From Rhizaria sp. SCN 62-66 (taxonomy: Eukaryota), in NCBI GenBank assembly GCA_001724265.1, contig MEDY01000039.1, forward strand, positions 1 through 64,000: a stretch of DNA of 64,000 nucleotides, read 5' to 3'. The notes beneath the pieces are model-generated. The model saw only the letters and a program-made list of their open reading frames with translations, was not told the DNA's origin and searched no databases. Positions within the stretch are counted from its first letter, which is position 1. The number at the start of each line of letters is the position of its first letter. This document shows positions 9,126 to 61,922 of this stretch, piece by piece. Both the position numbers and the translations under genes were made by a program.

Positions 9126-12100
9126 ATGCCCCCAGTGACTACAATGCTCGACCTCTCATTCACCCGCGCTCTTGACCCGCTTTCTCGCGGTCTTGCGGCC
9201 GCACTCAGTGACAGGCTAGCTGACGGGAACGCGCCGCGCGTGGGCCCGCTGTCCCGCAGTGACCGCAGCAAAGCGTCGCTTTCGGCTCTGTCCCTACGCG
9301 CGCTCGAGATCCAGCTTGATCTCCTGCGCATCGACGCCGCCGCTGCGTCCCACTACGTGCTTCTTGCCTCTTTGCGGGCGCTCCCCGCCGCGGATCGCGC
9401 GGTGAAGGAGGTGAAGAGGCTCGCCGCGCAAGTGAAGGAGCGCATTGCAGAAGCAGAGACTGCGTCGGACGCCTTGCTCGAGGAACAAGATGGTGTAGAA
9501 CTCATGCTTAAGCTCAAGTTTAATATCAACAATGGCGGGCGGCTTGTGGTGGGAGATATCCAACCGATCTACGGCCCTCTTAACGCTACCGCGAACTCGA
9601 ACTTCAGCACCAGCAGCTCAAGTGCCAGCTCCAGTGTTAACGAGACTGATCGCAGCGGCTCTGTTGCCCCTGCTGTGCCGGTTGATCCCGCTTCGTTTGT
9701 AGCGGATCAGTGGGACGCTGCAACCATGCGTGCGCTCCGCAAGCAATATCACGTTCATTCGCGTCCTAAACAGCCTTCGCAGCACGTTGGTGAGTTAGCT
9801 GTGGCATCACGCTCCCAAGCGCCCCAGTCTCGCGGCGTGCGACGTCCCCAGAACGCGTTCGACGTTTAGGCTGGCGGCAGCGGCATCCGTGAGGACATGC
9901 GCGGCAGTGACAGCGCGGGCGCACGGTCTCTCTCGCAGTTGCAGTCGCGATCACCGTCGCAGCGCCCAACGAGCGCCCGCGCTGCCAGCACTGTGGAGAA
10001 AGAAAGGGCTGCCGCGCAGGCGGTGGCACTTGCGGCTGCGCTTGAGCGTCTTAACGACGGTGTCATTAGCACGTCTTCAGGCGCCGCCGCCTCGGCAGAC
10101 ACGGTGGCCAGTGCAAGCGCTGCGACGGGCGGGGCTACGGGTGGCAATGCGGGCAAGAAACAGCGTGAGCGGAAGGTTATTGCTCCGACGTTGATCTCCG
10201 CAACTCCTGTCACGAACACTACAACTGCAGCAACAACCGCAGCAGCATCGTTGCTTCCCGCTTCTACAGCAGCACCTGCTGCACGCTCTACTGTAAGTAC
10301 GATTGTGACGAAAGTTAAGTCGGACTCTCCCGCGCGCGCTGCCATCACCGCGCTTCTGCTCTCGTAGCCATCAAGTGCGCCCACTGCGACCGCTCGCAGC
10401 AATAGCGGCGCGAGCGCCGGGGTGAATGTGGGCGAACATCCAGTGACTGTGAGCAGCGGTGCGGTACTGGCCCTGCCGCCGTGGGGCGAGTGGGGGGTGC
10501 CCACGGTCACTGCTGAGATGACAAATAGCCGCGTCTTAACTAATGTCACCGGTAGTGGTACGACTAGCATTCTAGATGACGATGTTGACGTCGACGTTGT
10601 CATTGGTGATGATGATGAAGACGGCGAAGACGAGGACGATTACGACGACTATGAGGGGGATAAGAGCCAAGACACTGGCTATGTGTCTGATGTCGAGGGC
10701 GCCTGGGACAGTGCACTCACCGACAGCGACGTCGTTATCAGCGGCTCCGGCTCGGACTCTGCCACTGACTCTGACTCAAACGACAACATGCTCGCTCGCC
10801 CGGACGATATTCAGTCGAACTTTGCCTCCTCCTCCGAACTTAAAGCGCGCTACAGTACGCGGCGGCGCGTTAGCTCGAGTCGTGCCGCCGACAGCGAGGA
10901 TGAGGACGAAGACTGGTTACCGCCGCCCTCAAAGCCGACTGCTGGATCCAGTCAAACTGTGAGCCGCTCGTATAGTCACCGCCATAGCACGGTGATGGCG
11001 ACTGCGACTGGTGAGTTGACTAGTCTGCCTGAAACGAAAGACACCGGCGTTAATTCGGAGAGCTCTTTCAGCTCAGACTCTTACTCTGATTCGGGAGCTG
11101 ATTCTAGCTCGGATACTGACTCTGAATCTGGTCCCGACTATCGTGACGACGACCGTGGGCAACCGGCGAACGAGATCGCTGCCAACGGCGATAACTCCGA
11201 GTACTCAAGCGTGTCCGGCGACTCTGACTACGATAACAACAACAGCATGAGCGAAAACAGCGACGAAGTTGACACCAGCGACATTGACGCTTTGTACAGC
11301 GACTTCGACAGCGACGATATTGCTGTCAGTGACACAGATGCTCACCCGAACGAGACTGCGCAAGAGCGCGCTGCCCGCCGCCGCCGCGCCCACTACAAGT
11401 CCAAGGCCGCGATGGCCGTTGCGGACCGCATGGAGCGTGCGGGCGTGCGGGCTGATAAGGCCCGTGCTCTGCGCAAATCGACAATGAAAGACTCGGCGCT
11501 GGGTCGTGCGATGAAAAAAGCCGACGAGCTCCTCAGTGGTCGGAGCGAGCCTCGTCGTGAAAAGAAGCCGCATACGCCTGTGTCGAGGGCCAAACCGTCT
11601 GTTGTTGCAATGAATGACGAAATTGACAATGCGGATGAAGGCGCGGGCAGAGAGTCTGAGGTAGGGTCACAGGTACCCACGTCTCTCCTACGTCACGGTG
11701 GGTCCAAGGGCGTCTACGAGACCTCTGTGCCTGTGCCACTTACAACCGTGCTATTTCCAGCGCCGTTGCCATTTGGCATCGATCGCGCGTTTCTTTCGAT
11801 GCCGACTAACGCTGACAGAGATGTCTCGCAAGCGAATGTGACTGCTGCTGCTCAGTATACAAGCCTGCTCCCGCACCAGCACAGGAACCGCTACTTGTGG
11901 TCGCTGCTCTCACCAGCACAAGACCCTAACACTAATGCTGGAATGAACGCGAATCTTAGCGGTACAAACAGTGACGCTGTTTGTTGCTTTGAAGTTGCTG
12001 TTTCTGTGCCGTTCCGCGCTGTTTTACCGCCTTGTTTCACCGACTCCTGGATTGCTGACACACCCAAGACCGTTGATGGGACTGGATCCAAGTGGCTGCT

Positions 12101-15100
12101 CACACAGACCACAGCGATGTGCGCATCGCCTCTTAGTGCTTCCAGCAACAGCCATACTTGCTCCGTTGCGCTCGATGCAGCGGCTGCAAACTTTCACTCT
12201 GCTGCCGGAGCTACTGCTGTAGGTGCAAGCTCGCAGTCTATTGCTGTTGCAGCGACGCCATCGCAGCAACAGGAAGTGCAGTCGCACTATGTGTACTTGC
12301 CATACCCGAAATCTGTGACAACACCGCTCGCAACAGCTCTCGAGCCTCGCAACCCTACTCCAAGTTTAAGCTCTGCTCTTGGTTTGAGCTCTGAAGCTGG
12401 CATCACTAAGAATGATGTTATGACAATCATGACTGCAAAGAGTGTTGTTTCGACGCTGAACCCGTCGAACCCTGTCCCAGCCTTGAGCGCCATTGGCGAC
12501 CCCGCAGCTGCGGCGGGTGCCGGGGCTTGGGCCCTCTGCCAAAAGTCGCTGCTTGACAGCGCTTCGAAATACGCGGACTCCTCTGAGTACTTGGATGCCC
12601 TCGACCGTGCACTTGGCAGTGTTTCAGACGCCTTGCTGGAGAGTGTCGGCGTGGCGGCGTCGATCGTACCCCTATATAGGACAGGCCTAAGTACCCATGA
12701 TGGCGGTGTAAGTACTCCACTGCTCGTCTTGACGCCGATCTCTCCCGCTGCTTCTGCTGTCTCCAGTGCGCTGCTTGAGACTGGTGGTCACATCACGAAG
12801 AACAATTCGATCGTAGTTGATGACGATGTTGACGACTCCAACAGCGATACTGACCGTGACTCGCGCGCCCCAAAGGCTTCTGGTCGCAAGAACAATAGCG
12901 TGAGCTTTCGCTCTGACTTGCCATGGGCCAAGGGACAGTGTATTGTCAACACTCCACTGACAGCTGAACATCCCACAACACTCATGAATATTGCCAACGA
13001 TGACACGCCTGTATCCAGCAAGCGGGGTTTTCGTGCCAAAGGCTAGAAGCGCAACAACGTTATTGCTGACGAAGATGATGACGATGTCGTTGTTCTTGAC
13101 GATAGCGATAGCGGTGACGTTACAATCACTCACGTCGTCAATAATGCTAAGAGTAGGAGTAGCCAAAGCGAAAGCAAAGGCAGGCTTGCTTGGTTGGCCC
13201 AAGCAACGGCGCGCGCCACGGGCGTTGCAACAACAACAGCATCAGCCGTTGCGCTGTCGCCAAAGATTAGCAACGGTACTCCCGGCAGCGATGATAGCAA
13301 CTCAAACGTTATCGTGATGACGGATGACGTTAGCGCTGTGAGTACAGCTCCAGCTGCTGATGTTTGTGTCAGCGAGGCGTCAGTGGCAGCGGCGGCTCAG
13401 CAAGACCCAGTGAGCGCGACACCTGCACTTGTGACGGTGGTCTCAACTCGCTCACTGCGGCGCACTCTAGCTGCGATGCTGCCCGCCAGCACGCTTAATG
13501 CGATGTACGGTCTCGCATCATCTTCTGCGCTTCACAATATTCTGGACGCTAACGGTGCGCAATCAGCGACCTCCACTGCCTCGGGGACGACGTCATTGTC
13601 TGGAAGGACGCTACCGGCTGACTGCGCCTTTGGTCGTTGCGGCCGCGGCTGTGGCGCGTGCGGTGGCGGCCTGCTCTGGGCCGTTGGTCTGCCCGTAACA
13701 GCGGGCGCAAGTGAATCGCCGGCAGCCGTTGCGGCGACGGTTGTTGCTGCAAGGACGGCGGAACGTGCACGGAATGTGGCACTGCGCGGTCTGGGCAGTG
13801 ACGACGACGGCGACTTGAGCGAGTATGATAAAGACTGTGACAAAAACGATCACACTCAACTGGGCTCTGATGCGTCCGCGTCAGCGTATGCTGGTGCGCA
13901 TGGTAAGAAGACCTCGCTGAGCAAGGCGGCGCGTGCAAAATTGGCCCGTGAAATGCGGCTAAGCCGTGCGTATGATCCGCGGTACTACCAGTTTGATCAC
14001 CGTTGCCAGATCAACGACGTCCCCGATGCTTCGAAGATCGCGGTCGCGTTTGATGCGATCTTCGCTAGCTCCGAATTGTCCGCGTCAGCCACGACGTTGG
14101 CGCAGTCGCTACTGCCTCTGCAGACCTTGCTATCGTACTCGGGTGGTGTTACGCCACGGTTTCAAACTGCACTTGCTGTGAATAAGAGTGTTGCGATGTT
14201 GGCAGACACGGCTGCCGCGTCAGCGCGCCGTGACGCATCTGCGGCTGCTCTCGCCCCTGTGTCCGTACTGGCAGCGGCTGGTGCGATCGTTGCCGCACAT
14301 GCAGCTAATCTTGCTGAGGAGACAAATAACGGTGCTTACGCTATCTCGCTTGCAGCACACACCTCTCCTCGCCTTACAAGTGTTCAATCGGACGACGACT
14401 CTGACTTCTTTGCAACTATGCTATCCGCGCTTTCACAGCGTAAGACTCGCGACATGCTCAACTCTGCCTTCAGTGACGACTCCGCCGGTTTCGACGCAGC
14501 AGCCAGTGCGCGCACTGCGAGGGCTGGCGCTGTGGAAGCGCTGTCACTGTACCACGCTGCGTCGCTCCACGCTGACCTGGCGCGAGTCATGCCCGCAGTC
14601 ACTCAGCTCGCGCTGAACAACAATATCGACGACAACGCTATTTCTAACACGTGGGTGAGGCCAACCGTCGTGCCAGTTCCTCTTTCGGCAGCCACAACCA
14701 CAGTATCGCTCCCTCTGCGCGCTGCTGTAATTGGCGCGCTGCGCTTGCTCCGCTCTCACGTTACTGGTGACGTTTGCGCTAAGACACATGCGCTGCCTGT
14801 GCTCGCAGTTAATGTTGATGACTCCGAGCGGCTGCAGGATGAGGATATGTGGGGACGGTGGTTGCTCACAGTAATCTTGAACTCTGAGGCGTCTGTGAAA
14901 AGTCCATCGGCTAACGGGGCGCGTGATAACACCTACTCATCATCAGCCAGTGCGTCTGCTGTAACTCACAGAAATAAGGAGGCGGTTGTGTCACTATTGA
15001 CAGTGCCGACGGTAGTTTCTCTCCACTTACACTCATCACTGATTCCCAGCTCAAAATCGAGTCAGAGCTCTACCACCAACGCTATTGCGACTGTGAATGG

Positions 15101-18100
15101 CTCAACATCGGAAGGCGTAGGTAAGAAGCTACGGCTTCCGCTGTTTCCATCACTCGCAGACTCTTTGCGCCTCGCGACTGCGAACAGTGCCTCCGTGCAA
15201 GTCACTGTGGGCAAGCCCCCGCAGATCTCTGGCCGCACGGCGCAGTTGCTGCGCGCGGTGATGGCAGTGGTGAGTGCGGCGCAAATGCAGCGAGACCAAC
15301 AACAACAGCACAAGTTGCGCTGGTCGCGTCACACAGAGCAACCTGACGACTGTAACGCCAGTAGCTCAGGCGCATCTGCAAGCTCGAGTGCTGGTGGTGA
15401 AACCGGGAGCTCTGCGAAGTCAAGCTGGCGTGCGTACATTGAGTCGCTACCACCGCTTCCATTATCATTGCCTTCATCACATGCACCATTACCAGCGAAT
15501 AACGCCAATGTGAAGGATAGCAACAGCAACAACTCAGCGACTGTGAGCACAGCGCTGCAGGACTTAGATACTCTCTACGACTTGCTCTGCCCACGGTCAC
15601 AGTGGGCTACTCTTGCTCCACAGCCTCGCGGCTTAACCTCAACGCTGTATAATTACCAGAGGAAAGCACTCTCATGGATGGTGTACCGCGAGATGCGAGA
15701 TGTGGCGCCGACGTTGGCTCCACCGCTGTCTCACGCGACGAACATGAGCGCAAACCACTGCGCCAACAATGCAGATGCATCTTGCGTAGAAGGTCGTGGT
15801 GTGTTGCCGTTAAGCTTTGATGACACGCTCACACAAGCGCCGTCGGTCTGGGGTCGAGGATTTGGCTTAGACGACGTGTTGACAACGCGTGGCTCGCATT
15901 TCGCCTCCACCGCTGCATTTTCTGATGAGAGTAAAACTAATGGCATGACTGGGCGCAAGACAGCTGATCGCGAGATTGCTGCTGTGACGGCGGCCTCTGC
16001 GGCAGATGTTGCAGCTGCCGCTGCTAATGCTGCTGGGTATTGCTCAGCGCCACACTCGGACGACAAGTTGAGCGTAATTCCTAGTATGGCATCAAGTTCG
16101 AATGTAAGCGCTCGTGCCTCATCTGGAGCCCGCGGTAGCTACGTGCCCTCTGTGTTTCCTCTTGCGCGCGACTTGACGTGGGACAGTGTGAAGAGCCATA
16201 AGTGCACTTACACAGATTTAAGTGCATCTCACAGTCACGAGCTGGGTATGTTTGCAGGCGACGAAAATGCTCCTCAAATTTGCGCTGAGTGTGGCGCACT
16301 GTCGTCTGATCGTGAACAACGCGGCGACCGTGTGCCTGGAAATACTCGTGAGATCTCTGCTGCTCCTGACCGTGAACAAGGTCAGGGTGCACTGTGGATG
16401 CACGCTCTTTCGCCAACCCTCTCGCAGAAGCCTCCTCAGCCCTTGTTCGACGTTCGCGGCGGCATCCTCGCCGACGCCATGGGGCTTGGTAAGACTGTCG
16501 AAGTGATCGCGCTTATTCTCGCGAATCCTTCCCCGTTTCCCAAGCCACGGCTCCCGCCGAGGCCCGCCGTGCTGGCCGGCTCTGGCACGCCGCTGGCCGC
16601 GACGCGGGGGCCCAACGGCAACGGCAGCGGCAGCGGCAGCAGCGCCAGTGCGACGGGCAGCAGTACGGCTCCCGCAGGCAGTGTCGTCAGTGGAGTCAAG
16701 ACTGAGAGCGCAGTAAAGCGGGAAGAAAATTTGGGTGGCCCCTCTCATAACGCCGAAGACGACGGTGATAACGGTGACAACGATGAAAGCACGTCGTTAT
16801 CGTCGCTTGCTATCACTGAAGCGGAGGCTTTGTTGGCATCGCAGCGACAACTGTGGTTTGAGGATGATGAAGTGATGGCACGCGGGAGCTGGAGCGTCTC
16901 TCCTGACGCACAAGGTGCTGGCTCAACCAGCGGTTTGCCTCATGGCACCGTCGCAAGAAGCAGCAACAGCAGAGTCTTTGTGACGAGCGAAGTGGCGTCT
17001 TATCTGTCGCTATCGCCATTGTATCAAGACCAGCAAGGCCGCGTGATTGTTACCACTCAAAATAACGCAAACCCGTCCGTTTTATCGCTCCATGCGCAAC
17101 CAAAAGAGCCACAGAAGACAAAGGCGCAAGGACGAGGCCGTCGTGCTCCTGCATTGTCCGCACCAGCAACAGAAACATCGCAAACCTCAACCTCGTTGTC
17201 GCATGATATTTCAACTGCAATCACTGCGCTGACATCAGTCAGCGGTGGCATTCGGGCCGCTGCCCCAGGCTCTTCACCTAAGGCAGCTTCAGCATCAGCC
17301 GCAGCTTCGTCGAAGGAACTGCCTGCTTCTGTCCCGTACACGGCTCTGTCACTGCATCCATTTCTTGCCGGCACGCGTGCCTTCCGCCGCGCTCTGATGT
17401 TGATGTTGCACAGCAAGCCCCACTGCCACATGCCCGCCGTCAGCGCCGCGTCTGCCGCCAAGGCGTTTCTCGCCCAGCCCAGTCCGCACTCGTCCACTGG
17501 CGGCGCGATGAACGACACTCCGCCCGGGCGCCGTGGCGGTGCCCGCGGCGGCCGCGCCGGTCGCGGTAGCGCGCGCGGCGGCAGCGGCGGTAACAATAGT
17601 CGCGGGGGTACCGCGGCGCAGAGGCATATCAACCACCTAATTGAGTCTGGAGGCGGTGGCGCGGACTCAACGGGTGTGCTCCAAATGCTTGCGGCAAGTG
17701 GCAGTGCTGTTTCTGTCTCCGCAGCCAATGCGAACGCGGGGGGTCGCCGTGGCAGCGCTCGCGGGATCAACATCAATGACGCGCAAGCGGACGTTCGAGG
17801 AGGTGATGCCGGTCAAGAGCAGACGCTGGCGGAGAAGCTTGGCGGGGACAACCCGTTTGCTGGCATCACATCTGCGTCACTCTTGGCGTACGCGATCACG
17901 GAGGCTGCTAATGCGAGCGCAGCGGTAAGCGGAGAGGCGTGGGATCAAGCTGTGTTGTCGAGCATTTGCGGGGTGAGGCATAATCAATGGAGCCACTTGC
18001 CCACTGCCGCGACCACTGCGAACAAGAACAGCATCATTGATATAGGTACTGCTGCTGTTGCCAACAGTCATTGGCCTGCTGTTACGAGCCTGACATCACT

Positions 18101-21100
18101 CCCTTCCCCGTCATATCACAACGAAGCTCAGTCATCTTTGTCAATCACGACGGCGCTCGTAACCGGTGTTGGCGATAGCGCGTGCACTGTGCCCCATGGC
18201 TGGTTTGACCCTGTGTCATGGGGACCTCGCGACTACACTCTTATTGCACCGCCTCCGCCGCGCACTCTGCTGCGCTCGGTTACATTCAGAAGCCAATCTA
18301 ACGGTAATGCTGCGGGACAACTGCAACCGGTTTTGGTGCGTGCGAGTGCCGTTTTGCGTTCTGAAGACGCATTTCTGGAGCCTGTACCTAATCGCAATCA
18401 ATGCGATTTGGGGGTGCCATTTCCTGGTGGCTTGTTAGTTAGGCGCTCTCCTGCACTGCCGCAGCCGTGCCTGAAGGCCATGCCGCTGTATACTGCAAAC
18501 ACAGATTATACGCAGCATAACTCCACAGTGTCTCTGAGTATCGTCCCCGCTGTTGCTTCTCTCATTCCGTTTAGCGAAATGACAACAACGATGCGTCTTA
18601 GCACGCAGTCAAGTGTGCCAAGCTTGCGTAAAACTGTGCTTGCAACAGCGGCTGTCGCAGCAGCTAATGTGGCGGCACGTGCGTGGGACGCGCTTGACCG
18701 TGACAACGTTGCAGAGCTGCGCGCTCCCGCACTCACAGTCTCTCTGAACAGCTCTAACCTCGGCAGTTCTGCCAGTGGTGCACGGTCACAAACCTTGGCA
18801 TCCACCGCGAGTGCTTCATCGAGCGCCACTGAGTGTGAGCCTGTTACGGCAACGCTGCGGACTGCGTGGGCTGATGGGGTGCAAGTGCGTGGTGCTCCAG
18901 AGGTGAACTCAGTCGTTGCATACCCTTTGCAGGTTACTGTAAGCGACAATGCATCCGGCGCAGCAACTGTCGTCACTGCGCAGTCGACGATGCCGACTGT
19001 GCATGGCTTGTCTTTGGTTCAGTCCCTTGACTCTACAGTCACGACCGATAAAAGTGCCAATACCTCAAGCAGTGACGTTACAAAGAGCACAAACTCGTCG
19101 GATGTTGAGTTTTCTGGAAGCTCAAGATGTGGTTTCGTCTATGATGCCCCCTCAGCTGACGCCATTTCAGCGGCCGCCGCAGTCACTGCCCCCAACGGCG
19201 CCTCGCTGCAGCTCCCCGACGGCCCCACCCTCCGCTTCGTCGTGACCCCTGCGACACTGATTGTGTGCCCGCCCAGTCTCATGTACCAGTGGGCCAGCGA
19301 GTTTGCAACACACGCGCCTAAGCTCACGGTCTGTCTTTACCATGCTGTCACGTCACAGGAGGCCCGCGCAGCGGCGGAGACCGCAGCGACGGCTCTGTCG
19401 AGCGCGATTGCAGCGTTGTCCGAAGCTGAGCAGAAGCAGGCGTCCGCATTGGCCGCGGCTGAAATGGCCGAAGCTAACGCTGCTGCTGCTGCAACTGCCG
19501 CAGTGCAAAATGTGCGCCAACAAAGGGAAGCCATGGCTCTTGGTCCGCGGGCGACAGGGTGGGGGCGCTACGCTGCATCTCTCTTCAATAATGCATCTAG
19601 GATTAATGTGAACTCTGTTGGAGGCGCGAATATGCAACGGTCGAGCGGCCTTTCAAGCAGCGCTGCGTTATCAGCGATTAAGAATCACCATCATGACAAA
19701 AAGAAAGTACAGTCTCTGCTTTACGAGAGTGATTCAGACGGTGACGCGAACGATGACACAAAATATGAGCGGCGTGAGAGCGTATCTGGCGCTGCTGTCA
19801 CGACAGCGACTATCACGAGGCCAGCACATAGCTTCTGTCGTCGCTCGCGGCTGAACATCTCAGAGGCACTGCAACCCCTTGCGCAGTCTGTCTTGACCTC
19901 GCCATTGTTTGCGCCAAACGAGGCGGAAACCAACCCAGTGCCAGTGAGCACGATGGAGCTTGGTGACGGTGACGATGACTCAGACACTGGCGAAGTTACT
20001 GATAACGGCGTCTCGTCACTCACGGTAGCAGCGGAGACATCCCTTGCTTTCCCGCAAGATTCTGTAAACACGACCTCTCTTGTTCGCGCGCGCCGCCGTG
20101 TGTGTCTTGGCTGTGGCACTGTCTCTCTTGTCGAGGCAACTGACCGCGTTCCTCTTACACTCTCTCAGCAGTTACAACAACGAACCGGTTTTGCGCGAGC
20201 CAACTCGAACGGCGTTGTGTTGGTCGATGGTGCTATCGTGTTTCCGCTTGCGACGCCGCTGTTGACTGATATCAACGGTCCGTGCAGCACGTGCGCGGCT
20301 GTTGCCGCAACGTCCAGGGTTCAATCATCAATGTCCAACCGGAAACGCCCCTCGTCAGTTGCAGAGCTCGCAGATAACGCCTCGCCTGTGGCTGCAAGTG
20401 CTGGTGGAGATGAGAACAATGCTAAGGCGTGGGCCGCGATGCAACAGCAGTATGAGACTGAGGACAACTCGTGTCCCATCTACATCTCACTCTCAGACTC
20501 CGTTACTTCAGCCTCTTTTGACAGCAGTTTGTTCTATGCGACGACAGCCGCTACAGCAGCTGCGACGAGCTCTTCAGCTGCTGCGACCAAGGCTCGTGCC
20601 GCGGCTACCGCAGCGATCGCCGCGACCGCCGCTGCGTGTTCTGCTGTTGCGCGCGCTAAGGTGGAGCTTTCAGCACACTTGGAAGCAGCTGCAGTGTCCG
20701 AGTCCGCCTTGTCACCGTCATCTCAGTACTCTGCATCGCTGCGTGATCTCTTGGCCGCTGACGTTGTCATCACGACATACGATGTGCTGCAAGCTCAACT
20801 CCACTGCGCTCCCGGTGGCGCCGGCAAATACTCTTTCCGACAAGAGAAACGCTACGCGCTGCCTGCGTCGCCGCTGCTGCAGCTGCACTGGCACCGCGTG
20901 GTGCTCGACGAAGCGCAGTACGTTAAGTCCTCGACCTGCGGGCCCGCGCGCATGGCGGCGCGCGTGTCCGCCACGCACCGCTGGGCCGTGTCGGGCACGC
21001 CGATCGGCGACCGCGGGCTGCTGGACCTGTACGGACTGCTGTTGTTCCTGAGGTTGGAGCCGTTTACGGATGTGGGCGAACGCGTGACGAGGGACATGCT

Positions 21101-32930: not shown

Positions 32931-33274
32931 AGAAGTGTTACGCATGGTTTAATTATGTAATTATATGATGATATATAGAATTAACGCGCGCCAAGACGTG
33001 TGTATGTAGATAGCAATATGTTGAACTAGTATTTTAATACAATTTTAACTCTCATCATTCGTGTCTTAGACTTAAAAACCTATTATAATGCGAATTTGTC
33101 AGTCAAAAATGAATTTGTGGTGGTTGGGTCCCAGTCTGCCGACGGCATCTGACTGATGGTGCGGACATGTCCTCGCAGCAGACCGCATGATCGTCATAAT
33201 AGCGTTTATTCGAACAAGGTATATTTTCTTATTAAAATCTCTTCAAATACTATTTTCACATTGTTCCAGCAGTG

Positions 33275-34048
33275 ATGTCTGACGTCCCCGCTTCATCCGA
33301 AGCTCGGGACCGAGACACCCCTCACAGTCCGCTCGCTGCGCCGGACAACATGGACGCGTTCCTCCCCACAGCCGCAGTGCGCAACCCGCGCCCTCCTGCG
33401 ACGCGTGTGGCCGAGGACTCTGACAGCGATATCGGCGTCATCGAGACAATCATTCCTTCCTCGACGCGCGCCACTGCTTCGAGCGCGCGCAAGTCTGCCC
33501 AGGCGCAGTCGACCGACAACTAGCCCATCGCGCTCTCCGACTCAGACAACAACACCTACACCGGAGATGACAGCGATGGCGTGCAGATTGCCTCCGTCAA
33601 CGCCCGTGTGGCCGCCCGCGCCGCTACTGCAAGCAACAACAGCACCACGGACGCTGCCATCGAGCTGAGTTCCGACTCCGACTCCGACGCACGCTCCAAC
33701 ACTCACAGCTCTAAAGCCAACGCCTCGCGCTCCGCCGCGGCCCAGAAGCCTTCCCTGGCCGCCGCTGCCGCCGGCTCTGCCGCCGCGATTGCCGCGGGCG
33801 CCAAGAGCGCGATCCAGCGCGCCGCCGCAGCCCGCGCGGCCTCTCGCGGCGTCGACACCGATTCTGACTCGGACAACGACTTCGCAACCGCAGCCGCCTC
33901 GTCGACCTCTTCTCCGGAGCTGCGAAGCCGTGACGGCGTGACGTACCGATCGCGCATCTTGAACCCGTACGACGACCCCGTGGCGCCTGCCACGGGCCAC
34001 GGTGCTGTGCCGTCGCGCCGCACTGCGCAGCGCGCAGCCTCCACAGTC

Positions 34049-34125
<77 letters not shown>

Positions 34126-36638
34126 CAGCAATAGCTCGAAAACTGGCGCGGGTGCCACAGGTTCCTCTGGCGGCGACATCGCTGAGCAGCATCAGTACCA
34201 GTTCAATCTCAAGTCCCCTCTAGCAGTGACCGTTAGCACCAACGCCGCCGGGGAAACCACGTCGTCGTCGGTCACCACGCGTTACGCGCCCGCGCCAGTC
34301 ATGGGTTCCTCGGCCTCGGCGGCCGCGCTGGCCAAGGCCGCGGCGCCGCCGACGGGGCCCGACCGCAGCCGGCTCTACGGCGACGGCGACGATGAAGATG
34401 ACGACAACGCGGGGCCGGCGGTCAAGTACCGCAGTACGCTGCCGGAGGTGAAACGGAAGAGTCTCACCACGCGCTATTTCAACACGCCGGTGTGCGCGCA
34501 AGATGTCGCAGATATGCTCGCTGCGTTTGCGTCTGCTAACCCTAACATTAACAGCAACTCCACTGACCAGCAGTCCCAGCAGCAACAGCAGCAGCAGGAC
34601 AACGATCAAGACTCCGCGAATGCGGGCGCGAGTGGCAGTAATCAGTCGGCGCAAGCGTTGAGGCTTGCGTTGGGCTCTGCCGACAGTGAGTCACCTTTCC
34701 TCGCGATGAACGATGATGACGACGGTCATTTCAACGGTAATGCTGGCAAGCGGTCTGCGACTGCTGGCGCTGGCACTAAGCGTCCCTTCAGCGATGTCAA
34801 CAGCAACGGCGACACTAACCATGTCGACACGACCGCAGACTCTGCCCTTGACGCTGCCGACGCCGCTGCAGCGAGCTACTACGACGTGAACTACGACGAC
34901 TTCGAGCTCGAGTACCCGAACTCCGACTCGAGTACGGCGGCTAAGAAGCCGCACCGCCGCCGCGTCAACAGCGACGGCGAGAGCGACTACGAGTACCTCA
35001 ACGACGGCGACGACGAGGACGAGGATGACGACGACGGCAACGGTGATGATCTGAACGCGACGATGACACACGGCCGCGCGTACAGTCGCCAGAATCCAGC
35101 TTCCCCGTTCTCGCCCTACCGCGCGACTGACGGCACTACCACGGGCCACTTGCTGTCCAAGCCCGGGGCCGTTGCTGGTGCCAGTGTGAGCGCGAGTGCG
35201 AGTGGGGCTACGGCGAGTGGCGATGACTCAGCGTCCGCGTCAGCTGCCGCGCGCCGCCGCCAGTCGCTGCTGTCTGCCGCCTCCTCCGCGCCCACAGTTG
35301 TCACCGCCGCCGCCAATGCGACTGCGGCGGCGTACACGTACACTGCCGTGGCCCCGCTGGCAGCGACGACGGAGGAAGACATGCTGATGTATTATCGCCG
35401 GCTGTGCCACGGCCGCGACGACTACGCGCACTTAACTGAATCATCATCATCTTCTTCTTCGTCGAGTGCGTCGAGCGCGTCGCTGTCTGCGGTGTCGGCG
35501 CTCGTCCCCATGCCCGCGCCGACTCTGACCCCCGCCGAGACGACCGCCGCCGCGGCCCGCCTCGCGCGCACAGTCACAGTCCCCGCGGCGCTGCTCGCGC
35601 GCATCAGGGCCGACGCCGCGCCGGCCGCGCTCGCCGCCGCCGCCGCCACCGCCGCCACCGCGGCCGCCGCCGAGGTCGCCGCCGCCGCCGCGCCGCTCCC
35701 GGCCGGCCCCACCGCCGCCGCGGCCGCGCTGCCCCCGTCGCTGCGGCCTGCGACCCTGCCGCCGCTGCTGTCGACGGCCGTGCCGACCGCACCGTGCTTC
35801 CTCTGCCACAGCGGCGGCCACCACTCGCGCGACTGCCCCGCGCCGCCGTTCCCCGTCCTCGTCTGCGGGCTCTGCGGCCACACGGGACACGACACGGGCA
35901 CGTGCACGAGCGAGCCCTGTGCGCAATGCCTCTGCGTCGGCCACCACAAGGCGCAGTGCCGCTCGCTGCAGGCCGGCAGCAGGGACGAGTTCGACCGGCT
36001 CGTCATGCAGTTCTCCGCCATCTCCGCCTTCGCCAGCGCCAGCAGCAGCAGCGGCCACAAGGGCGCCGCCGCCGGGGGGAGCAGTACTGGCAGCAACGCG
36101 GCCCGGACGAGCGCGGTCATCTTGCGCGGCGCCGCTGCGTCCGCTGCCGTCGCCGCCACCGTGGCCGCGAATGACAGCGCAACCGGGCTCGACAGCTCCT
36201 TCACGGCCCCTCGCCACAGCCACGCCCACGGCCATAGTGATGGTGAGATTGCGGCTGCGATCGCGCTGCCCCCGCCCGGCAGCGGCGTCATCACCCCGGC
36301 GCCCGCCGCCGCGGCCGCCGCGACCCGGGCCGCCGAGCAGATCGCCGCCGCGATCGAGACGGCGTGGGCGCTGGCGGCCGGCATGGTCGGCAAGAAGATG
36401 GTGCCTCTGCCCACGGTCATCGCCCCGGGCGCGGCGAACACGATCCCCGGTGGCGCCAGTGGCGCCGTTGACCACAGCGGCAGCAGTTCTAACGCCGCCA
36501 ATGATAGAGCGAGCTCGGAGTCGAAGAAGCAGTCGAAGAAGCACGTGTCTGGCGAGTCGCTTGTGTGTGCCGGCCCGCCCCGCGTTCTCAGCTCGATCGC
36601 CCCCCACAACAATGCAGAGCACAGCGAGAACACCAACG

Positions 36639-36669
<31 letters not shown>

Positions 36670-39271
36670 ACAGTCAAAGTCTCAGTCAGCGTCGCCGCTG
36701 TTATACTACTACCCCTGGCCGTTGAGCACCGGCCGCGTTGGCTACGGCGCTGGCGACAAGCCCCCTCAAAGCGCCGCCGCGAGCGCCCGCGCCGCGAACG
36801 CCGGCTCTGACGGCGAGAAGCTGCCGAGCTCGATGTACAGCTTTGAGGCCGCTGCGAAGGAAGCGCGTGGGAAGAACGCCGCTGGCAAGCACCGCAACGG
36901 CAAAACGCAAGTCAACGCGCATGGCCGATTTGATGACGACGATGACATCGCGCCGACAAGTAGCAACAGCAACAGCAGCAGCAGCAGCAACAACAGCCAC
37001 GCGAATGTCAAGGCTCCGGAGCGTGCTTTCCCCCCTGGCGTCCCCACCATTGTTGACCCCGTCACAGGCGTCAAATTCCAGCTTTACCGCGATTTCTCCT
37101 CGTTACTGGACTCGATCTCGCTCTCAGATGCGCCCGACCCCAACCAGTCCCCGCGCGCTGCTTTACTGTACCTAATCAAGGCCATCCACGTGCTCTCGGC
37201 CTCTGCGCAGCTGCGACTGGCCGTGTTCCCCGGCGGCGTCCGCGGCGTGCTCAAGGCCGGCACTGGCCCGGGACCGTGCGGCCGCTGCGGGTCGCCGCTG
37301 CACCTGCAGAACATGTGCACGTGGCTGCTCACGGCGGAGTCCGCCAAGGCGCGCGTCGCCGTCAACGCGGCCGCGGACGCCGCCGCTCGCGCCGCCTTGA
37401 GCAACAACGGCAGCAGCAACGCCAACGCAGGCTCTAACGTCAACAACAGTGCGAGTGCGAGAGCAGTTGGTGGCTACAGGAGCAGTACTGAGGTGACGAA
37501 CGCGATCGCGACACTGCTGCACGTTGTCTCTGGCCCCGGCGGCGGCTCCCGCGCCGTCGACTCCGTGGTTTCCCGTTTGCGCTGCATGGTGTGTTACCAG
37601 TACGGGCACTTGACGTGCGACGGCGACCGCGGTATGGCCCAGGGACTCGCGGTCATGGGTACCGCGATGACGGCCAACATTAACCACTCGATCTACCGCG
37701 CCATCGCCCCCCAGAACCAGAACAACAACAGTAACAATAAGGCGAGCAATGACAGCAAGGGCAAGAAAAACGCGGCCAGCGCTGCGACCACAGCTGCGAA
37801 CAGCGAGGCCTTCGCCGCGGCGGACGCCACAGTCACTGAACCGGCGACGGGAGTGCGCGTGCGGTACGCCAAGATCACGGCGGGTCAGCGTGGCCGCCTC
37901 CAGTGGCTGCCGCCGAGCCTCTCGCAGCCGCTGCTGCTGCCGGCCAACACTGACAGCAACGCGCACGTGCGCGCGCAGCAGGCGTCGAAGCGCAAGACGC
38001 TCGAACCGCCGGCGCGCGCGACGGAGGCGCTGGCGTTGATCGCGGACGCTATGCAGGCCAAGGCCGCCGCCGCCATCGCCGCCGCCGCCGCCGCGAGCGG
38101 CCTGCCTCAAAGCAGCGGCGGCAACGGCGCCAGCGGCGCGAGTCTGGCCTCGCTGAAGCTCTCCGCGGGCGTCGCGGGCAGCAACAGCGCCAAGGCCAAA
38201 GCCGGCAACGCCGCCGCCTTCGGCCCCGGGTCCCCCGTCGCGGCCACGGTCGCAGTGAAGCATCTCCCGGTCACCGGCGCCGGGCTGCGCGCGCGCAGCC
38301 GCGGCGGCAGCGGCGGGAACAAGTACAGCGACCTCTCCGAGACCGACCCCGACGTGGACTCCGACAGCGACTACGACTACACCGCTGCGGCGGCTGCGGC
38401 GGCGATCTCCGCGAACGCCAACGCCGGCAAGGGCGCGACCGACGCGAGCGGCGCGATCACAGTGCGCTCGAGCACCCTCGAGGTGCCCGCGCTCCTGCTC
38501 GCCGCCGCGCTGCAGACCGACTCCGGCGGCGCCGTGGCACTTGTACGCGGCTGCGTCAACTGCGGCTCGACGGCGCACAACGTCACGGAGTGCCAGTTCC
38601 AGCGGTTTGACTCGCTCGCGCCCGAGAACCTCGAGTGCTCCAACACGGGCGTCGGAAACCAACAGAAGTGTTTCCGCTGCAACCAGCTGGGACACATCGC
38701 CGCCGCGTGCCCTAACCTCGGCAGCAACAGCGCGCACCACAGCAACCGCGGCGGCAGTGGCGGCGCGGGCGGGCGCGGGCACCATATGCAAGGCCACCAG
38801 CAGCAGCGCGGCGGCAGCGGCGGCGGCGGCGGTGACCGGCGCCGGCAGTACGACGACGACAGCGACGACGACGACGATGACGACGAGCCGCGGCACAAGG
38901 GCAAGCGCTCTCGCATGGACAACAGCAGCAGCAGCAGCAGCAGCAGCGGCCGTAGTGGGAGTGACCGCGATCGCCGGAACAGCTCTGGTGGTGGAGGCGG
39001 CGACCGGCAGTACAACAGCAGTGGCGGTGGCTCGGGCAGCAACAGCGGGCTGAGCCACATTCAGTGCCACAAGTGCAACCAGTTTGGCCACTACGTGCGC
39101 GATTGCCCGCGCGGCAGCGTGCTGATGCAGTACCAGGGCCAGGCGCGCCGCGGCGCAAACGGACCGCGGATCAATCCAGGGCAGCTCTACGCACAGCACG
39201 CCGACGACAGCAGGCGGCTCGAGGGGTACAGGCGCTCGGGCGGGCAGCACCATGGTGGGAACCACTACTGA
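33275..39271 (+). CDS. AIR1/2 / ZCCHC7-like multi zinc-knuckle protein (~1,998 aa, single exon, one in-frame TAG)
   Basis: ATG at 33275 sits at the AT-to-GC boundary, TAG at 33521-33523, and the frame continues to TGA at 39269-39271. There are seven CX2CX4HX4C knuckles plus a shortened one (CMVCYQYGHLTC), an arrangement resembling plant AIR1-like proteins. Confidence 0.75.
33521..33523 (+). other. In-frame TAG, candidate sense codon (QSTDN*PIALSDSD)
   Basis: ORFs 33272-33523 and 33581-39271 share a frame. The next in-frame ATG is about 780 nt downstream. Confidence 0.8.
34049..34123 (+). repeat. Compound microsatellite (AAC)14(AAT)11 encoding poly-Asn25
   Basis: Directly visible and in frame within the zinc-knuckle gene. 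Confidence 0.95.
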
Positions 39272-39530
39272 GTGGTGTGCCGGCGTGTATAATAACCTTG
39301 GTGGTGTCAGCTCTACGGTCACTCTTGGCCAGCTGTCTGCATGGTCCAATCGGAGATATTGAAAAATGTTTATACCGAGCGACGATGTCCGTCCTGGTCA
39401 ATTTATTTGTCATTTAAGCTATTTAGTCAACATAAACTATACTTTCCTATTTTAATCAATCTTAAAATTTCTGATTTGCTATTGAACTGCACTGTTTTTT
39501 GCAGCGCGCGTGGCTGGCTGGGACTACACC

Positions 39531-41082: not shown

Positions 41083-41114
<32 letters not shown>

Positions 41115-41675
41115 GGTGGGATTGGTAGGAGCGGCAAGGCCAAGGCTATTGTCGAGCGCCGCAAGCTGTCTCCAAAGCGTGGCTCTGAGAGCATTGACGC
41201 CTCCGCCAGCTCCAACGCTGACAAGGGCAAGGACGCTCAGCCCAGCAGTCGCAATGGCGCTGATGTGCCCGGTGTGGCCGACCCCAAGGGCGTGGTGCGC
41301 ATGTTCCTGGACTCGCTGGGCAAGGAAGAGTGGGCGACCGCGCTGCTGCAGGCTCTGGCCGAGGCAGCGGAGGCCGCCAAAGAGACGTGCGCTGAGCCCG
41401 CAGCGATCCGTGTCCCGCTGACCAAGAGCCATGTGATGAACCAAGCGAACGCGAGCACACAGTCGCAGTCGCCGTCGCCCGTACACTCCCATTCGTCACA
41501 GCCTGCGCAGTCTTCGCAGTCGCCTTGCGGCGGCGGTGGCGCTGCAGCTGCTGCGAGCGCGGGGAAGAGCGGCAGCAAGAGCGAGGCGGAGGAGCACCGG
41601 CGCGCGGTGGCCGTGCTGCGGGAGGCGCTGCTGGCCGCAGTGGCGACCAAGGTGCACGCGGTTGACAGCAAGTGA
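39531..41675 (+). CDS. Ankyrin-repeat protein (~671 aa, at least 2 exons)
   Basis: Exons 39531-39612 and 39742-41675 (TGA); intron GTACGT...CGCCAG, phase 1. Ankyrin motifs: TPIYNAA, PPLCIAADRSNLLALTTLLEAGADVN, ALYYAARAHCIPAVRSLL, ESPLH, SALHLAA. An additional upstream exon is possible (acceptor-like TTTTTGCAG at ~39504). Confidence 0.85.
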
Positions 41676-42289
41676 GTCACTTCTCACAGAAAGTGAGTCA
41701 ATTCCCATCAAGTCGTATGTGTTACGCGAGATGTTGAGTTGCGTCACCATGCTGCCTTTTTATTTAGCCTGTACTTTTATTTAAATCAATTACTCCGTGA
41801 GATGGACGTGTACGAGTCCAAAAAGTCGGATTTCATAACTCTGTTCGCATGCTTACGTGCGCACTGCAGCGTGGCCGTTGAGATGTGTGAAAGTATGAGT
41901 CAGTGTTTTGCGTAACTACGCAACTTTGTGTATATTCTAACTGATTTATAAACATAATAAAGCCTAGTACATTTCTTGAAACGACAAAAACCAAACCCGC
42001 ATAGTACTGTAGCCGAAAATCATAACTACTCCGACAATATCGAAAATATAGTTCAAAATAAAACTTGAAAGAGCAGTGCGCTTCATATATTGCCTCCCAT
42101 AACTCTTTACTGCTTTCATTATATCTTTAACATCCCCTTGCAATATGTAGTCTAAACACGAAAGCAAACTGCGACAATTGCGACCTCGCGGCAATTGGAG
42201 CAGCGACTAAATACGCATCATATCCACCCGCATCTTCTGCATAGCGCATAGAATAGCGGCGGTCGAGCTCCTAAGCAAGACCAGGTGTC

Positions 42290-46102: not shown

Positions 46103-47986
46103 TTACTGCGACTTCAGATAAGACAAGCGAGTGATGAAAGCTTGCAGTGCCGCCGCTGCAGCATTGCTTCGGCTCTCCTTGTTGCTGTCCTCCCCTGCGT
46201 CGGAAGCAACCACCTGCGGTTTAACACGTGCGGAACGCTGAGGAGAGCTGTCAGAGCTGATGCTGCTGTTGTTGTTGTCATTGCGATCGCTCGTTGCGGC
46301 GGCTGCTTCAGCCGACATCTCGCTCAGATACCGCCGCATTGCGTCGTCGCCGTGGTCGCGCGCAGTGATCTCCAGGTCAGCAAGCTCGTCTGCACTCAGC
46401 ACTGTGAACGCCTCAGTGACGCTGACAAACGCGCTGGGGTCGCCGCTCTTAAGGTTCTCGCGGCAGTGCGTGAGAGCAGCGCGCGAGACCGCAATCATGA
46501 TGCGCAGTGTGAGAGCGCATGCGCCGCGGACCGGGTCAATGCAATCGGTGTCGTTGGTGTCGCAGGCGTTGCTGACCTCGCCCTCGTTGTCGTAGTCGTT
46601 GTTGTTGTTGTTCTTGGACTCGTTCATAATGTCAGCGTTTGCGCGGAGGTTAGCTGCGGTGTAATCAAGGCTAGAACCGTGGTTACCTGCGATATTATCG
46701 CCACTATCCCTCGAAAGGTCTGACGCGAGGCTCGTGCAGCCGACACAGTTACTGTGACTGTCGGAAGAGTCACAGAGACTCTCGGAGTCGCTGTGACAGT
46801 CACGGCCGGAGTCACGGGCGCTGTCGAGGTCACCGGTGCGGCCGCAACCACTCTCTTTGACGCTCGCGCTGGAACAGAAGTTACGCTCAGTGTGACTGCT
46901 CCGCGCCGACATAACGGGGTGTCGCTCATCGCTGTCGCCGTTGTCGTCGCGATTGTTGTTGTTGTCGTCGTGGTTGCTCGTGCTGAAGAAGCTGCTGTCG
47001 TTCTCTTCTTCATCATCCTCGTTGTCTTCATTGTCCTCGACCTGCTCGGAATCGAGTCCGTGCAGCACGTACAGCAACTTTGACAGCGACGGCACGAGGC
47101 TGCGCAGACGCGCAATCGCGCACGCGCGCGAATGTTGCGTCAGCATGTCGTCGGTGGCGCGAGTTAAGAGCACGGTGACGCACTGAGGCAGGTTAAGCGA
47201 GACTGCTTCAGAGAGGGCCTCCTAGAGAAGGGTCCTGTCGCAGCTGCAGTCCTCCTCGCTGAAGGTGCAGATCTCGCCGCCATTACAGCAGCTATAGGTG
47301 CTGTTGTTGGCGTTGGCGTCAGGCAGGCTAGCGCAATCAGCGCCATCAGCATCAGCGGGAGCAGCCGTTCGGCTTTGTTGTTGCTGCTGTTGCTGCTGCT
47401 GCTGCAGCGCAGAGGTGATGTCAAGATAGCGAAGCAGGATCGCGGCCGCAATCGAATCGCCTGACCGTGCAGCAACTGCGCAGTAGTGCACGGTGCACCC
47501 GCCGCTGCTCTCGGAGAAGGGGGCGAAACACAGCTCGCAAGACTGCTGCTGTGGGTGCGGCCCGGATCGCTTGGCAGTTGGCATGCAGTCATTCTGCTCG
47601 ATTTCAGCCAAACCGTGGCCAAGAGTGCTGCCGCTGTTGTCTTCGTCAACGTTGTTGTTGAGGGAGTAGCTCGCTGCAAGCCGGAGAAGGTCCAACATGA
47701 TGGAGATGCTCAAGGGACTGCCGAAATCATGGCAGTAGAGCTTAAGCTCGGTGAGGACCAGAGAACCGTGGCCAGTACGCTGGACAGATGTCGCATCAGT
47801 GGATAACAGCGTCCGGATGGCACAATGAACGCGATAGAAGATCGCGTGGCGCTGCTCAATCAAGAGAGCAGCGAACCCGGCTAAGCTCAGGTTGAACTCC
47901 TTACTGAGCACATCCAGCACGAAACTGTACATCCGGGCCTCGAAAGAGCTGAGGAATGACGTATTTGATTTATAGTCCTGAGACAT
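46103..47986 (-). CDS. Hypothetical protein with ankyrin-like segments (~627 aa, one in-frame TAG)
   Basis: ORFs 47222-48067 and 46103-47173 share a frame, join across TAG at 47224-47222 and end in TAA. Ankyrin-like YCAVAARSGDSIAAAILL precedes the TAG and EALSEAVSLNLPQCVTVLL follows it. An acceptor-like signal near 48042 suggests an upstream exon. Confidence 0.65.
47222..47224 (-). other. In-frame TAG, candidate sense codon (CDRTLL*EALSEAV)
   Basis: The minus-strand frame continues through 16 sense codons into ORF 46103-47173. Confidence 0.8.

Positions 47987-61889: not shown

Positions 61890-61922
<33 letters not shown>

Follow-up and report, generated by a model that had tools for sequence, protein, structure and literature searches.

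The window, by which we mean the whole stretch of 64,000 nt analysed here, carries eight gene models containing 17,761 codons, and these are interrupted in frame by six TAG codons, zero TAA and zero TGA (Table 1). The TAGs lie in three genes: g2, encoding a SHPRH/RAD5-like protein; g3, encoding a zinc-knuckle protein; and gene D, encoding an orphan protein. The NDUFV1 gene and a giant surface-protein gene contain no in-frame TAG, the former over its entire 468 codons. An earlier note made from the sequence had located all six TAGs correctly, assigned them to three broken genes, and recorded the absence of internal TAA and TGA, all of which we confirmed. The same note had treated 9063-24500 and 24644-31843 as separate genes, and these, along with 32346-32930, proved to be exons of g2, with introns between them.

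Table 1. Positions of the genes, introns, open reading frames (ORFs), in-frame TAG codons and gene ends in the window
Feature	Position	Strand	Description
g2, SNF2-RING-helicase C (SHPRH/RAD5-like)	9126..32930	+	Pfam SNF2-rel_dom and RING matches; 7,742 codons; TGA end; four in-frame TAGs
g2 exons	9126-24479, 24647-31807, 32045-32195, 32368-32930	+	
g2 intron 1	24480..24646	+	167 nt, GC 0.32, GTACGA...CAG
g2 intron 2	31808..32044	+	237 nt, GC ~0.42, GTACGT...TAG
g2 intron 3	32196..32367	+	172 nt, GC 0.36, GTAAGT...CAG
g3, zinc-knuckle (zf-CCHC) protein	33275..39271	+	1,998 codons; TGA end; one in-frame TAG
Gene D, orphan protein	46103..47986	-	627 codons; TAA end; one in-frame TAG
NDUFV1	61659..63568	-	468 codons in 4 exons, separated by 3 introns with GTACGT donors; TAA end
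TAG 1	9867..9869	+	Codon 248 of g2
TAG 2	10365..10367	+	Codon 414 of g2
TAG 3	13044..13046	+	Codon 1307 of g2
TAG 4	27641..27643	+	Codon 6117 of g2
TAG 5	33521..33523	+	Codon 83 of g3
TAG 6	47222..47224	-	Codon 255 of gene D
ORFs split by TAGs 1-3	9063-9869, 9870-10367, 10368-13046, 13047-24500	+	
ORFs split by TAG 4	24644-27643, 27644-31843	+	
ORFs split by TAG 5	33236-33523, 33524-39271	+	
ORFs split by TAG 6	47222-48130, 46103-47221	-	
Re-derived gene ends, TAA	7890, 42290, 46103, 60283, 61659		
Re-derived gene ends, TGA	32928, 39269, 41673		

Each TAG separates two contiguous ORFs of the same frame, and the ORFs joined in this way contain 165 to 3,817 codons each, with no gap between them. 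The spliced coding sequence of g2 is a multiple of three and, besides its four TAGs, contains no internal stop. To follow the coding signal across the TAGs, stretches free of TAG were used to train a codon-usage score, which was then computed for windows of 90 nt extending to 540 nt on either side of the six sites. The TAG frame scored best in 70 of the 78 windows, and three of the eight windows in which it lost lie upstream of the g3 start codon. For the pair of windows that meet at each site, namely the last one upstream and the one that begins with the TAG, the TAG frame was best in 11 of 12 cases, and the preceding window scored positively in this frame at all six sites. At TAG 9867, frame f0 won both upstream and downstream, and at TAG 33521 the score strongly favoured f0 from the ATG (33275) onward and across the TAG. 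The coding frame and its statistics thus continue past each TAG, with the signal undiminished downstream.

To determine how far the TAGs depart from chance, we combined the window with L001, a related metagenome contig that carries a homologue of g1 approximately 80% identical in DNA. Together, the two sequences hold 24,301 codons in gene models, with nine in-frame TAGs and no in-frame TAA or TGA. One rival reading is that the TAGs are true premature stops under the standard code, in decaying pseudogenes or as segregating nonsense alleles. As a null model for this reading, we took single-base nonsense hits on the codons of these genes themselves, among which TAG is the commonest outcome (share 0.50-0.54), so that a set composed only of TAG is not astronomically unlikely. 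Under this null, the probability of TAG at six of six sites was 0.016-0.025, and at nine of nine it was 0.0014-0.004. The argument against chance in the earlier note is therefore real, albeit weaker for the window than was implied. The presence of nine such codons in four genes of two genomes also far exceeds a normal load of nonsense mutations. In addition, 23.2 kb of g2, with three correctly spliced introns, contains no frameshift, and the coding statistics are as strong after each TAG as before it.

The eight window genes end in TAA (five) or TGA (three), and with L001 the nine ends comprise six TAA, three TGA and no TAG. The earlier note had listed ten gene ends, of which we re-derived eight; the other two, 49148 and 51152, lie outside the eight models. 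Its statement that TAG never terminates a gene agrees with this count, although at nine ends the observation is weak when taken alone (P = 0.13-0.23, the lower value applying if 20% of ends were TAG).

TAG codons would also be expected in the genomic sequence of standard-code genes if they were removed from the mRNA, either as the ends of short in-frame introns or by editing of the U. For comparison, six real introns were examined: these are 131-237 nt in length and have a GC content of 0.32-0.52, and in no frame does their coding score per codon exceed 0.075. Three of the six end in TAG; the NDUFV1 ORF contains such an acceptor as an in-frame TAG (62811-62813), and the TAG at 20336 in L001 is another. 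The sequence before the in-frame TAGs has an exon-like GC content, and the candidate intron segments have values of 0.57-0.64. Donor-like motifs that the earlier note had missed are present before TAGs 9867 and 10365. The motif GGTGAGT lies 80 nt upstream of TAG 9867, a distance that is not a multiple of three, and over the 270-540 nt upstream the TAG frame has a strong coding score. The motif GTAAGT lies 75 nt upstream of TAG 10365, and here alone among the six sites a candidate intron (10293-10367, GTAAGT...TAG) would preserve the frame. Its acceptor is 73% pyrimidine, but the segment has a GC content of 0.57 and a coding score of 0.277 per codon, above the exon mean of 0.206, and at 75 nt it is shorter than any of the real introns, all of which are at least 131 nt. 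At TAGs 13044, 27641 and 33521 the donor-like motifs match weakly and the acceptors are purine-rich, with no pyrimidine tract ahead of TAG 13044. Short introns ending in TAG are not supported at 9867, where the donor is out of frame, at 10365, where the segment is coding-like, and at the other four sites, where good donors or acceptors are absent. None of the eight RNA-library contigs listed bridges a TAG, as removal from the mRNA would allow. One of these contigs (24241-24537) extends 58 nt into a well-supported g2 intron, suggesting that this library may hold DNA or unspliced RNA. Taken with the position of a TAG within a protein motif of L001, described below, these results make removal of the TAGs from the mRNA quite improbable.

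Since the window is part of a metagenome assembly, sequencing or assembly artefacts were considered as a source of the TAGs. All four of the TAGs that were compared (9867, 10365, 13044 and 27641) are present in independently assembled DNA contigs of X3, a run from a different study and year than the window assembly, with no differences. The X3 contigs 9610-10890, 12512-14774 and 26161-28353 span TAGs 9867, 13044 and 27641, respectively; the last of these is also covered by the X4 contig 26597-28798, and at TAG 10365 both X3 and X4 contigs match with no differences. The database ORFs P0123, P0124 and P0125 all start or stop at TAGs, and P0125, which derives from a further assembly, stops at the residue right before TAG 27641. 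The TAGs are real DNA, and an artefactual origin is extremely unlikely.

In-frame TAGs are gained by point mutation within this species. At position 22410 (+), the window, X3 and X6 have A, but an X4 contig has T, which turns an AAG (Lys) codon of g2 into an additional in-frame TAG in one strain. The T was found at a depth of 7 of 7 in X4, 0 of 5.97 in X3 and 0 of 3.7 in X6. This is the sole change that creates a stop-type codon among the 24 listed single-base differences in g2, and the only listed indel belonging to the depth of this species is 3 nt in length and thus in frame. As regards the amino acid, the AAG/TAG pair is a single case. Synonymous changes account for nine of the 24 differences, compared with an expected share of 0.25 (P = 0.13), an excess too small to demonstrate purifying selection on g2. 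This excess, being non-significant, leaves room for premature stops, as does the fast evolution of every TAG-bearing gene; relatives of gene D and of the region of TAG 27641 were sought in 5.8 or 1.8 billion proteins and none was found. On the other side, the TAGs are fixed in assemblies of different studies and years. In conjunction with the nonsense-mutation null and the intact frame of g2, we regard decaying genes or segregating nonsense alleles as very unlikely.

The related contig L001 provides a second view of the same phenomenon. In its B-box gene, positions 20441, 20573 and 21257 each carry a TAG in frame, the coding frame being the same before and after them, and the L001 gene models contain no in-frame TAA or TGA. 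TAG 20441 falls within the zinc-finger motif of the B-box, flanked by the last two histidines of that motif, a position that argues against its removal from the mRNA. The residue at this position in TRIM proteins is E or G, that is, the position is variable. The TAGs are in frame and in exon-like coding sequence, and they recur in this relative.

In-frame TAG is nevertheless rare. The rate is 0.37 per 1,000 codons, and the nine TAGs observed, compared with 259 expected, make the codon approximately 29 times rarer than base composition predicts. Its distribution is also uneven: UAG is concentrated in long, low-complexity regulatory genes, and six genes with 13,347 codons, NDUFV1 included, have none (P = 0.007 under a uniform rate). 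These features are as expected of a dual or leaky UAG that still terminates some genes, only inefficiently, whether through a weak suppressor tRNA or through near-cognate readthrough; long and weakly expressed genes would then tolerate in-frame TAGs, as mildly deleterious leaky stops, without full reassignment. The polymorphism of one in-frame TAG within the species fits such a leaky stop, and nine gene ends are too few to show that TAG never terminates. Opposed to this is the complete absence of TAG from those nine ends. Moreover, with four TAGs in the 7,742 codons of g2, even moderate termination at each would compound to very little full-length protein. The base following the TAG varies in the window (G, C, A, C, C and G), as the earlier note had claimed, and over all nine sites it is C in four, G in two, A in two and T in one, so no readthrough context is shared. 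We therefore consider a leaky UAG unlikely, if less so than the other alternatives. Programmed readthrough under the standard code normally occurs at the annotated gene end, in a favourable context and with low efficiency. It resembles the present case in that translation goes beyond UAG; in contrast, the TAGs described here lie far inside ORFs of great length, a single gene holding as many as four, and their contexts have nothing in common.

The presence of TAGs inside intact genes that end only in TAA or TGA suggests that UAG is probably read as an amino acid. In our view the likely state of this lineage is that UAG has become a rare sense codon, with termination left to UAA and UGA. This proposal of the earlier note held in the analyses of frame, coding statistics, introns, assemblies, L001 and polymorphism; its mechanistic part lies outside them. 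That the TAGs are translated, and in what manner, we infer. The ribosome would pass UAG without stopping, the codon being decoded as an amino acid. By analogy with the UAG-only codes already described, the simplest mechanism would be a cytoplasmic tRNA with a CUA anticodon, which would pair with UAG but not with UAA; a second contributor may be an eRF1 that recognises UAG less well. A search for tRNA genes across the window and L001 (86.1 kb) found none, and the eRF1 gene is absent from both.

To place the organism, an NDUFV1 tree was examined, which is a single-gene tree with no sainouroid sequence included. The window falls in a clade of 21 rows (SH-aLRT 91), whose named members are Lotharella, Plasmodiophora, Lapot gusevi and two Paulinella, together with two rows from Euplotes focardii and Ploeotia data sets. 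The organism was seen in wastewater and bioreactor runs, recurring across studies and years, and judging from this tree it is probably an uncultured rhizarian protist from wastewater reactors.

Reassignment of UAG alone is already known, as the earlier note had pointed out, in a rhizarian and elsewhere (PMC5304391, PMC11687900), including exLh, Iotanema and some ciliates. In exLh, a sainouroid rhizarian from Lygus hesperus, UAG is reported to encode Leu, with UAA and UGA as stops (Panek et al. 2017, PMC5304391); the figures given there are 384 UAG in 71 transcripts, which end in 56 UAA and 15 UGA. The window lineage resembles exLh in having UAG alone in frame and only UAA or UGA at gene ends (56 + 15 of 71 compared with 6 + 3 of 9). 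The present organism, too, probably belongs to Rhizaria. The avoidance of UAG in highly expressed genes described for exLh is also paralleled here by a UAG-free NDUFV1. However, UAG is abundant in exLh and occurs at conserved leucines, whereas the nine in 24,301 codons found here include none at an alignable conserved position. Frequent use of UAG at conserved leucines, as in exLh, was accordingly not observed at the present rate and with zero TAG in NDUFV1. In addition, exLh dwells in an insect, and the present organism comes from wastewater and bioreactor runs.

Similar comparisons can be made with other lineages. Iotanema spirale (Fornicata) is reported to read UAG as Gln, with UAA as the main stop and UAG making up approximately 8% of Gln codons (PMC5304391). 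It likewise shows a UAG-only reassignment with modest codon usage, but it belongs to an unrelated supergroup and a change in the GTS motif of eRF1 is reported there. UAG-only reassignment is also described in phyllopharyngean ciliates, Protocruzia tuzeti and the green alga Scotinosphaera; in these separate lineages UAG, uncoupled from UAA, has come to encode Leu, Gln or Ser, indicating that this change arises repeatedly (PMC11687900). Unlike the ciliate cases, the window is without ciliate genome features, having long genes, few introns and GC-rich exons. In Blastocrithidia nonstop and Condylostoma, which have ambiguous or context-dependent stop codons, stop-type codons likewise occur inside genes, with termination by the remaining signal; these codes also involve UAA and/or UGA, frequently in frame, but here only UAG is involved, and rarely.

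The rarity of UAG, its location in low-complexity genes and its absence from NDUFV1 are compatible with a recent reassignment and also with inefficient decoding of the codon. Tentatively, and with more doubt than attaches to the decoding of UAG itself, this may be a previously unreported UAG reassignment at an early stage, in a free-living wastewater rhizarian and independent of exLh. This possibility draws on the TAG-free gene ends, the approximately 29-fold rarity, the confinement of UAG to weakly constrained genes and the AAG-to-TAG change at 22410.

Changes of the nuclear code are rare, and those in which UAG is altered with UAA still a stop are described in a handful of lineages. If true, the present case would be an independent data point on the decoupling of UAG from UAA, and its source is an uncultured protist found repeatedly in wastewater reactors, in different studies and years. 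Since UAG is so rare in frame, the lineage might show an early stage of reassignment, and in that event the order of terminator loss, gain of tRNA(CUA), change of eRF1 and spread of the codon would be readable from populations over years. Gene callers using the standard code cut the genes of this organism at every TAG, so the annotation of eukaryotic metagenome-assembled genomes (MAGs) of the lineage would come out wrong unless the right code is chosen.

The six in-frame TAG codons lie at 9867, 10365, 13044, 27641 and 33521 on the forward strand and at 47224-47222 on the reverse strand, where the earlier note had placed them, each separating two adjoining ORFs that share a frame. They fall in three genes, namely, g2 (the SNF2-RING-helicase gene, four TAGs), g3 (one) and gene D (one). 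The number of affected genes thus agrees with the earlier note, but its gene limits had to be revised, as 9063-24500 and 24644-31843 are not separate genes. Because the SNF2 domain, RING finger and helicase C motifs follow one another across three introns (24480-24646, 31808-32044 and 32196-32367), these two ORFs and the ORF 32346-32930 were joined into one gene, g2. Its spliced coding sequence of 23,229 nt carries the four TAGs and is otherwise stop-free until the terminal TGA. The further claims that TAA and TGA are absent in frame and that no gene ends in TAG hold for the eight gene models of the window, which contained 6 TAG, 0 TAA and 0 TGA in 17,761 codons and ended in TAA (five) or TGA (three). 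We consider it likely that UAG is translated as a rare sense codon in this lineage, translation being deduced here from the DNA.

Gene models of the window, with the domains or architecture assigned to each
Gene	Position	Strand	Features
g1	3-7892	+	Open at 5' end; Sushi, IPT/TIG, ephrin-receptor-like and TRP(-channel-like) domains; giant surface-type protein
g2	9126-32930	+	SNF2-RING-helicase C, SHPRH/RAD5-like architecture; 7,742 codons; three introns only
g3	33275-39271	+	Zinc knuckles
g4	40026-41675		Ankyrin repeats
g5	42290-45025	-	Gene model
gene D	46103-47986	-	Gene model
g7	51772-60285		Ankyrin + DHHC
NDUFV1	61659-63568	-	Four exons

The genes of this 64-kb window are eukaryotic, long and GC-rich, with few introns. 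The same DNA was found again in runs from bioreactors, wastewater and activated sludge, covering several studies and years, indicating that the window belongs to an uncultured eukaryote and was assembled from a metagenome. Its NDUFV1 has a relative of 94-95% identity. When 41 NDUFV1 rows were placed in a maximum-likelihood tree by a quick method, the window fell in a 21-row clade (SH-aLRT 91), of which the named members, Lotharella globosa, Plasmodiophora brassicae, Lapot gusevi, Paulinella micropora and P. chromatophora, are all Rhizaria. The same clade included two rows from the Euplotes focardii and Ploeotia vitrea data sets, apart from the true Euplotes branch. This placement, from one conserved gene and a quick method, suggests that the organism is probably rhizarian. 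A trypanosomatid, suspected from the long, intron-poor and GC-rich genes, was rejected in view of the spliceosomal introns, the Sushi, TIG and TRP domains and the NDUFV1 tree.

Several features of gene composition were also recorded. Low-complexity sequence between conserved domains makes up most of g2, and GC3 differed greatly between neighbouring genes (g1, 0.49; g2, 0.59; g5, 0.57; gene D, 0.71; g3, g4 and g7, 0.79-0.82). In g3, which has an overall GC of 0.68, approximately 25 successive Asn codons form a 90-nt patch of GC 0.28 at 34060-34150 (+). A multi-exon methyltransferase-like gene lies at approximately 49400-50600 (-), its ORF pieces including the SAM-binding-type motif 'SVLVIGSGNS'; two gene ends listed in the earlier note, 49148 and 51152, fall in the poorly resolved, AT-richer region of this gene.

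One related contig, L001, came from a single metagenome scan. A g1 homologue with approximately 80% DNA identity over 4.7 kb occupies the first 17.9 kb of this contig (2-17863); this homologue comprises at least 5,953 codons, is open at the 5' end, lacks introns and in-frame stops of any kind, and ends in TAA. At 17864-19700, the place that g2 holds in the window is taken by a small gene on the minus strand and a B-box gene. The zinc-finger pattern of the B-box protein, encoded by the gene following the g1 homologue, aligned weakly with TRIM and PML B-boxes (E 0.03-2.5). The last exon of the B-box gene (587 codons, open at the end of the locus) contained in-frame TAGs at 20441, 20573 and 21257; TAA and TGA were absent, and coding continued in frame on either side of the TAGs. 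Another TAG at 20336, which looks like an intron acceptor, was left out of the count. Since synteny differs after g1, L001 is not the same locus as the window; it is either a related genome or rearranged orthologous region, or a paralogous locus. The g1 homologue is the only gene in common, and the TAG sites of the window have no counterpart in L001. For the window and L001 together, the tally was 9 TAG, 0 TAA and 0 TGA in 24,301 codons, and all nine gene ends were TAA or TGA. The observation of in-frame TAGs is confirmed, and is extended by L001 and by a polymorphism at 22410.

To what extent could such a tally arise from true nonsense alleles? Random damage, as the earlier note argued, should give mixed stop types. 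However, CAG, GAG, AAG and TCG are common in these genes, so that single-base nonsense hits on their own codons would yield TAG with a share of 0.50-0.54. The argument is thus weaker than claimed, but the probability of obtaining only TAG under damage was still low, at 0.016-0.025 for six of six in the window and 0.0014-0.004 for nine of nine with L001. Three observations were also counted against decay: g2 keeps its frame through 23 kb and three splice junctions, the coding signal does not weaken beyond any of the TAGs, and the only indel assigned to the species in the strain comparison measures 3 nt. Nonsense alleles are accordingly regarded as very improbable. Among the strain differences in g2, 9 of 24 were synonymous against an expected 0.25 (P = 0.13), and selection on g2 was not demonstrated. 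One of these 24 listed single-base differences, an A to T change at 22410 found in the contig of DNA run X4 only, converts AAG to a further in-frame TAG, while runs X3 and X6 keep A. This difference indicates that new TAGs are still arising inside g2 and reaching consensus level in a population.

The sequence at the TAG sites was compared with contigs of four runs over 8801-28800, a stretch that holds four of the six sites, 33521 and 47224 lying outside it. Contigs of X3, from another study, at 9610-10890, 12512-14774 and 26161-28353 showed 0 differences and cover all four TAGs. X4 contigs cover two of them, at 10192-12363 (0 differences) and 26597-28798 (two differences, neither at the TAG). 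P0125, a database ORF that stems from yet another assembly, has its last residue immediately before TAG 27641. With the same TAGs recovered in this way, an artefact appears scarcely credible. In the polyA metatranscriptome run X5, none of the eight contigs listed on 8801-28800, all short, bridged a TAG. One of them, 24241-24537, crosses the boundary of g2 exon 1 and intron 1 and extends 58 nt into the intron, which may represent intron retention, pre-mRNA or unspliced RNA, or DNA carry-over in the library. With no TAG bridged and one contig running into an intron, X5 speaks neither for nor against splicing or editing.

Of the rival readings, the one in which the TAGs are intron ends was taken most seriously. 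Three of the six real introns of the window end in TAG; in the NDUFV1 ORF, one apparent 'in-frame TAG' is indeed an intron acceptor. These six introns range from 131 to 237 nt, with a GC of 0.32-0.52 and a per-codon coding score of at most 0.075 in every frame, and their donors are GTACGT (four), GTACGA (one) and GTAAGT (one). Candidate donors were found upstream of two TAGs, GGTGAGT at 80 nt before 9867 and GTAAGT at 75 nt before 10365. The 80-nt candidate has a length that is no multiple of three, and the 270-540 nt upstream of it scored 8.4-12.3 in the downstream frame versus -6.5 to -21.3 in the frame that an 80-nt intron needs; an intron joining the flanking exons is therefore excluded here. 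The 75-nt candidate would preserve the frame and its acceptor is good, but its GC is 0.57 and its coding score of 0.277 exceeds the exon mean of 0.206; an intron is possible at that site alone. No convincing donor precedes any of the remaining four TAGs, and three of these are preceded by purine-rich sequence. Around the six sites, the frame of the TAG scored best in 70 of 78 90-nt windows, three of the eight exceptions lying upstream of the g3 start codon. Removal or editing of the TAGs in mRNA thus seems improbable, and applies mostly to site 10365. As a separate observation, the GTACGT/GTACGA donors (window 63522-62811 (-), 24480 and 31808; L001 19800), together with pyrimidine-rich introns, represent an unusual donor consensus, which may help to recognize contigs of this lineage in metagenomes.

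Within the tally of 24,301 codons, the nine TAGs compare with approximately 259 expected from position-specific base frequencies. TAG was absent from the 13,347 codons of six genes, including NDUFV1 and both giant g1 copies (P = 0.007 at a uniform rate), and was present only in long, low-complexity regulatory proteins. This rare and uneven usage is consistent with a recent reassignment or with a codon that is decoded poorly, and it also keeps alive the alternative that UAG is a leaky stop or has a dual meaning, which we regard as rather unlikely. With respect to the amino acid, searches with gene D returned no relatives: its one match in a word-indexed set of 5.8 billion proteins, and both of its two matches in an exhaustive search of 1.8 billion, were ORF fragments of the window itself. 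The single match of a 701-residue region around TAG 27641 was a fragment of the same sequence. The B-box TAG lies between the last two histidines, at a position that varies among three structures (E in TRIM3, G in TRIM5 and TRIM72), and the AAG/TAG polymorphism is a single event in a weakly constrained region of g2. Neither a tRNA gene (ARAGORN) nor an Rfam family match was detected in the window and L001, and a scan of a prokaryote genome collection for mis-binned contigs of the organism gave 10 pattern matches, of which none was confirmed.

The first descriptions of a code in which UAG alone is reassigned, while UAA and UGA remain stops, concern the sainouroid rhizarian exLh (Leu) and Iotanema spirale (Gln) (Panek et al. 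2017, PMC5304391); later cases are Scotinosphaera (Ser), Protocruzia and phyllopharyngean ciliates (PMC11687900). All of these share their UAG-only signature with the window. In contrast to exLh, where UAG is abundant at conserved leucines, the window lacks this feature. In exLh, UAG is likewise avoided in some genes, those of ribosomal proteins, but is used abundantly elsewhere (PMC5304391). Amoeboaphelidium, considered as a UAG-only precedent, was set aside, being given as UAR = Gln in PMC11687900. Beyond Panek et al. 2017, a literature search, limited to one library, returned no report of a code variant in Cercozoa, Sainouroidea, Rhogostoma or wastewater eukaryote MAGs. On the best reading, translation of UAG in this lineage would add a further case to the small number of UAG-only reassignments already known elsewhere, possibly one caught early in the change.
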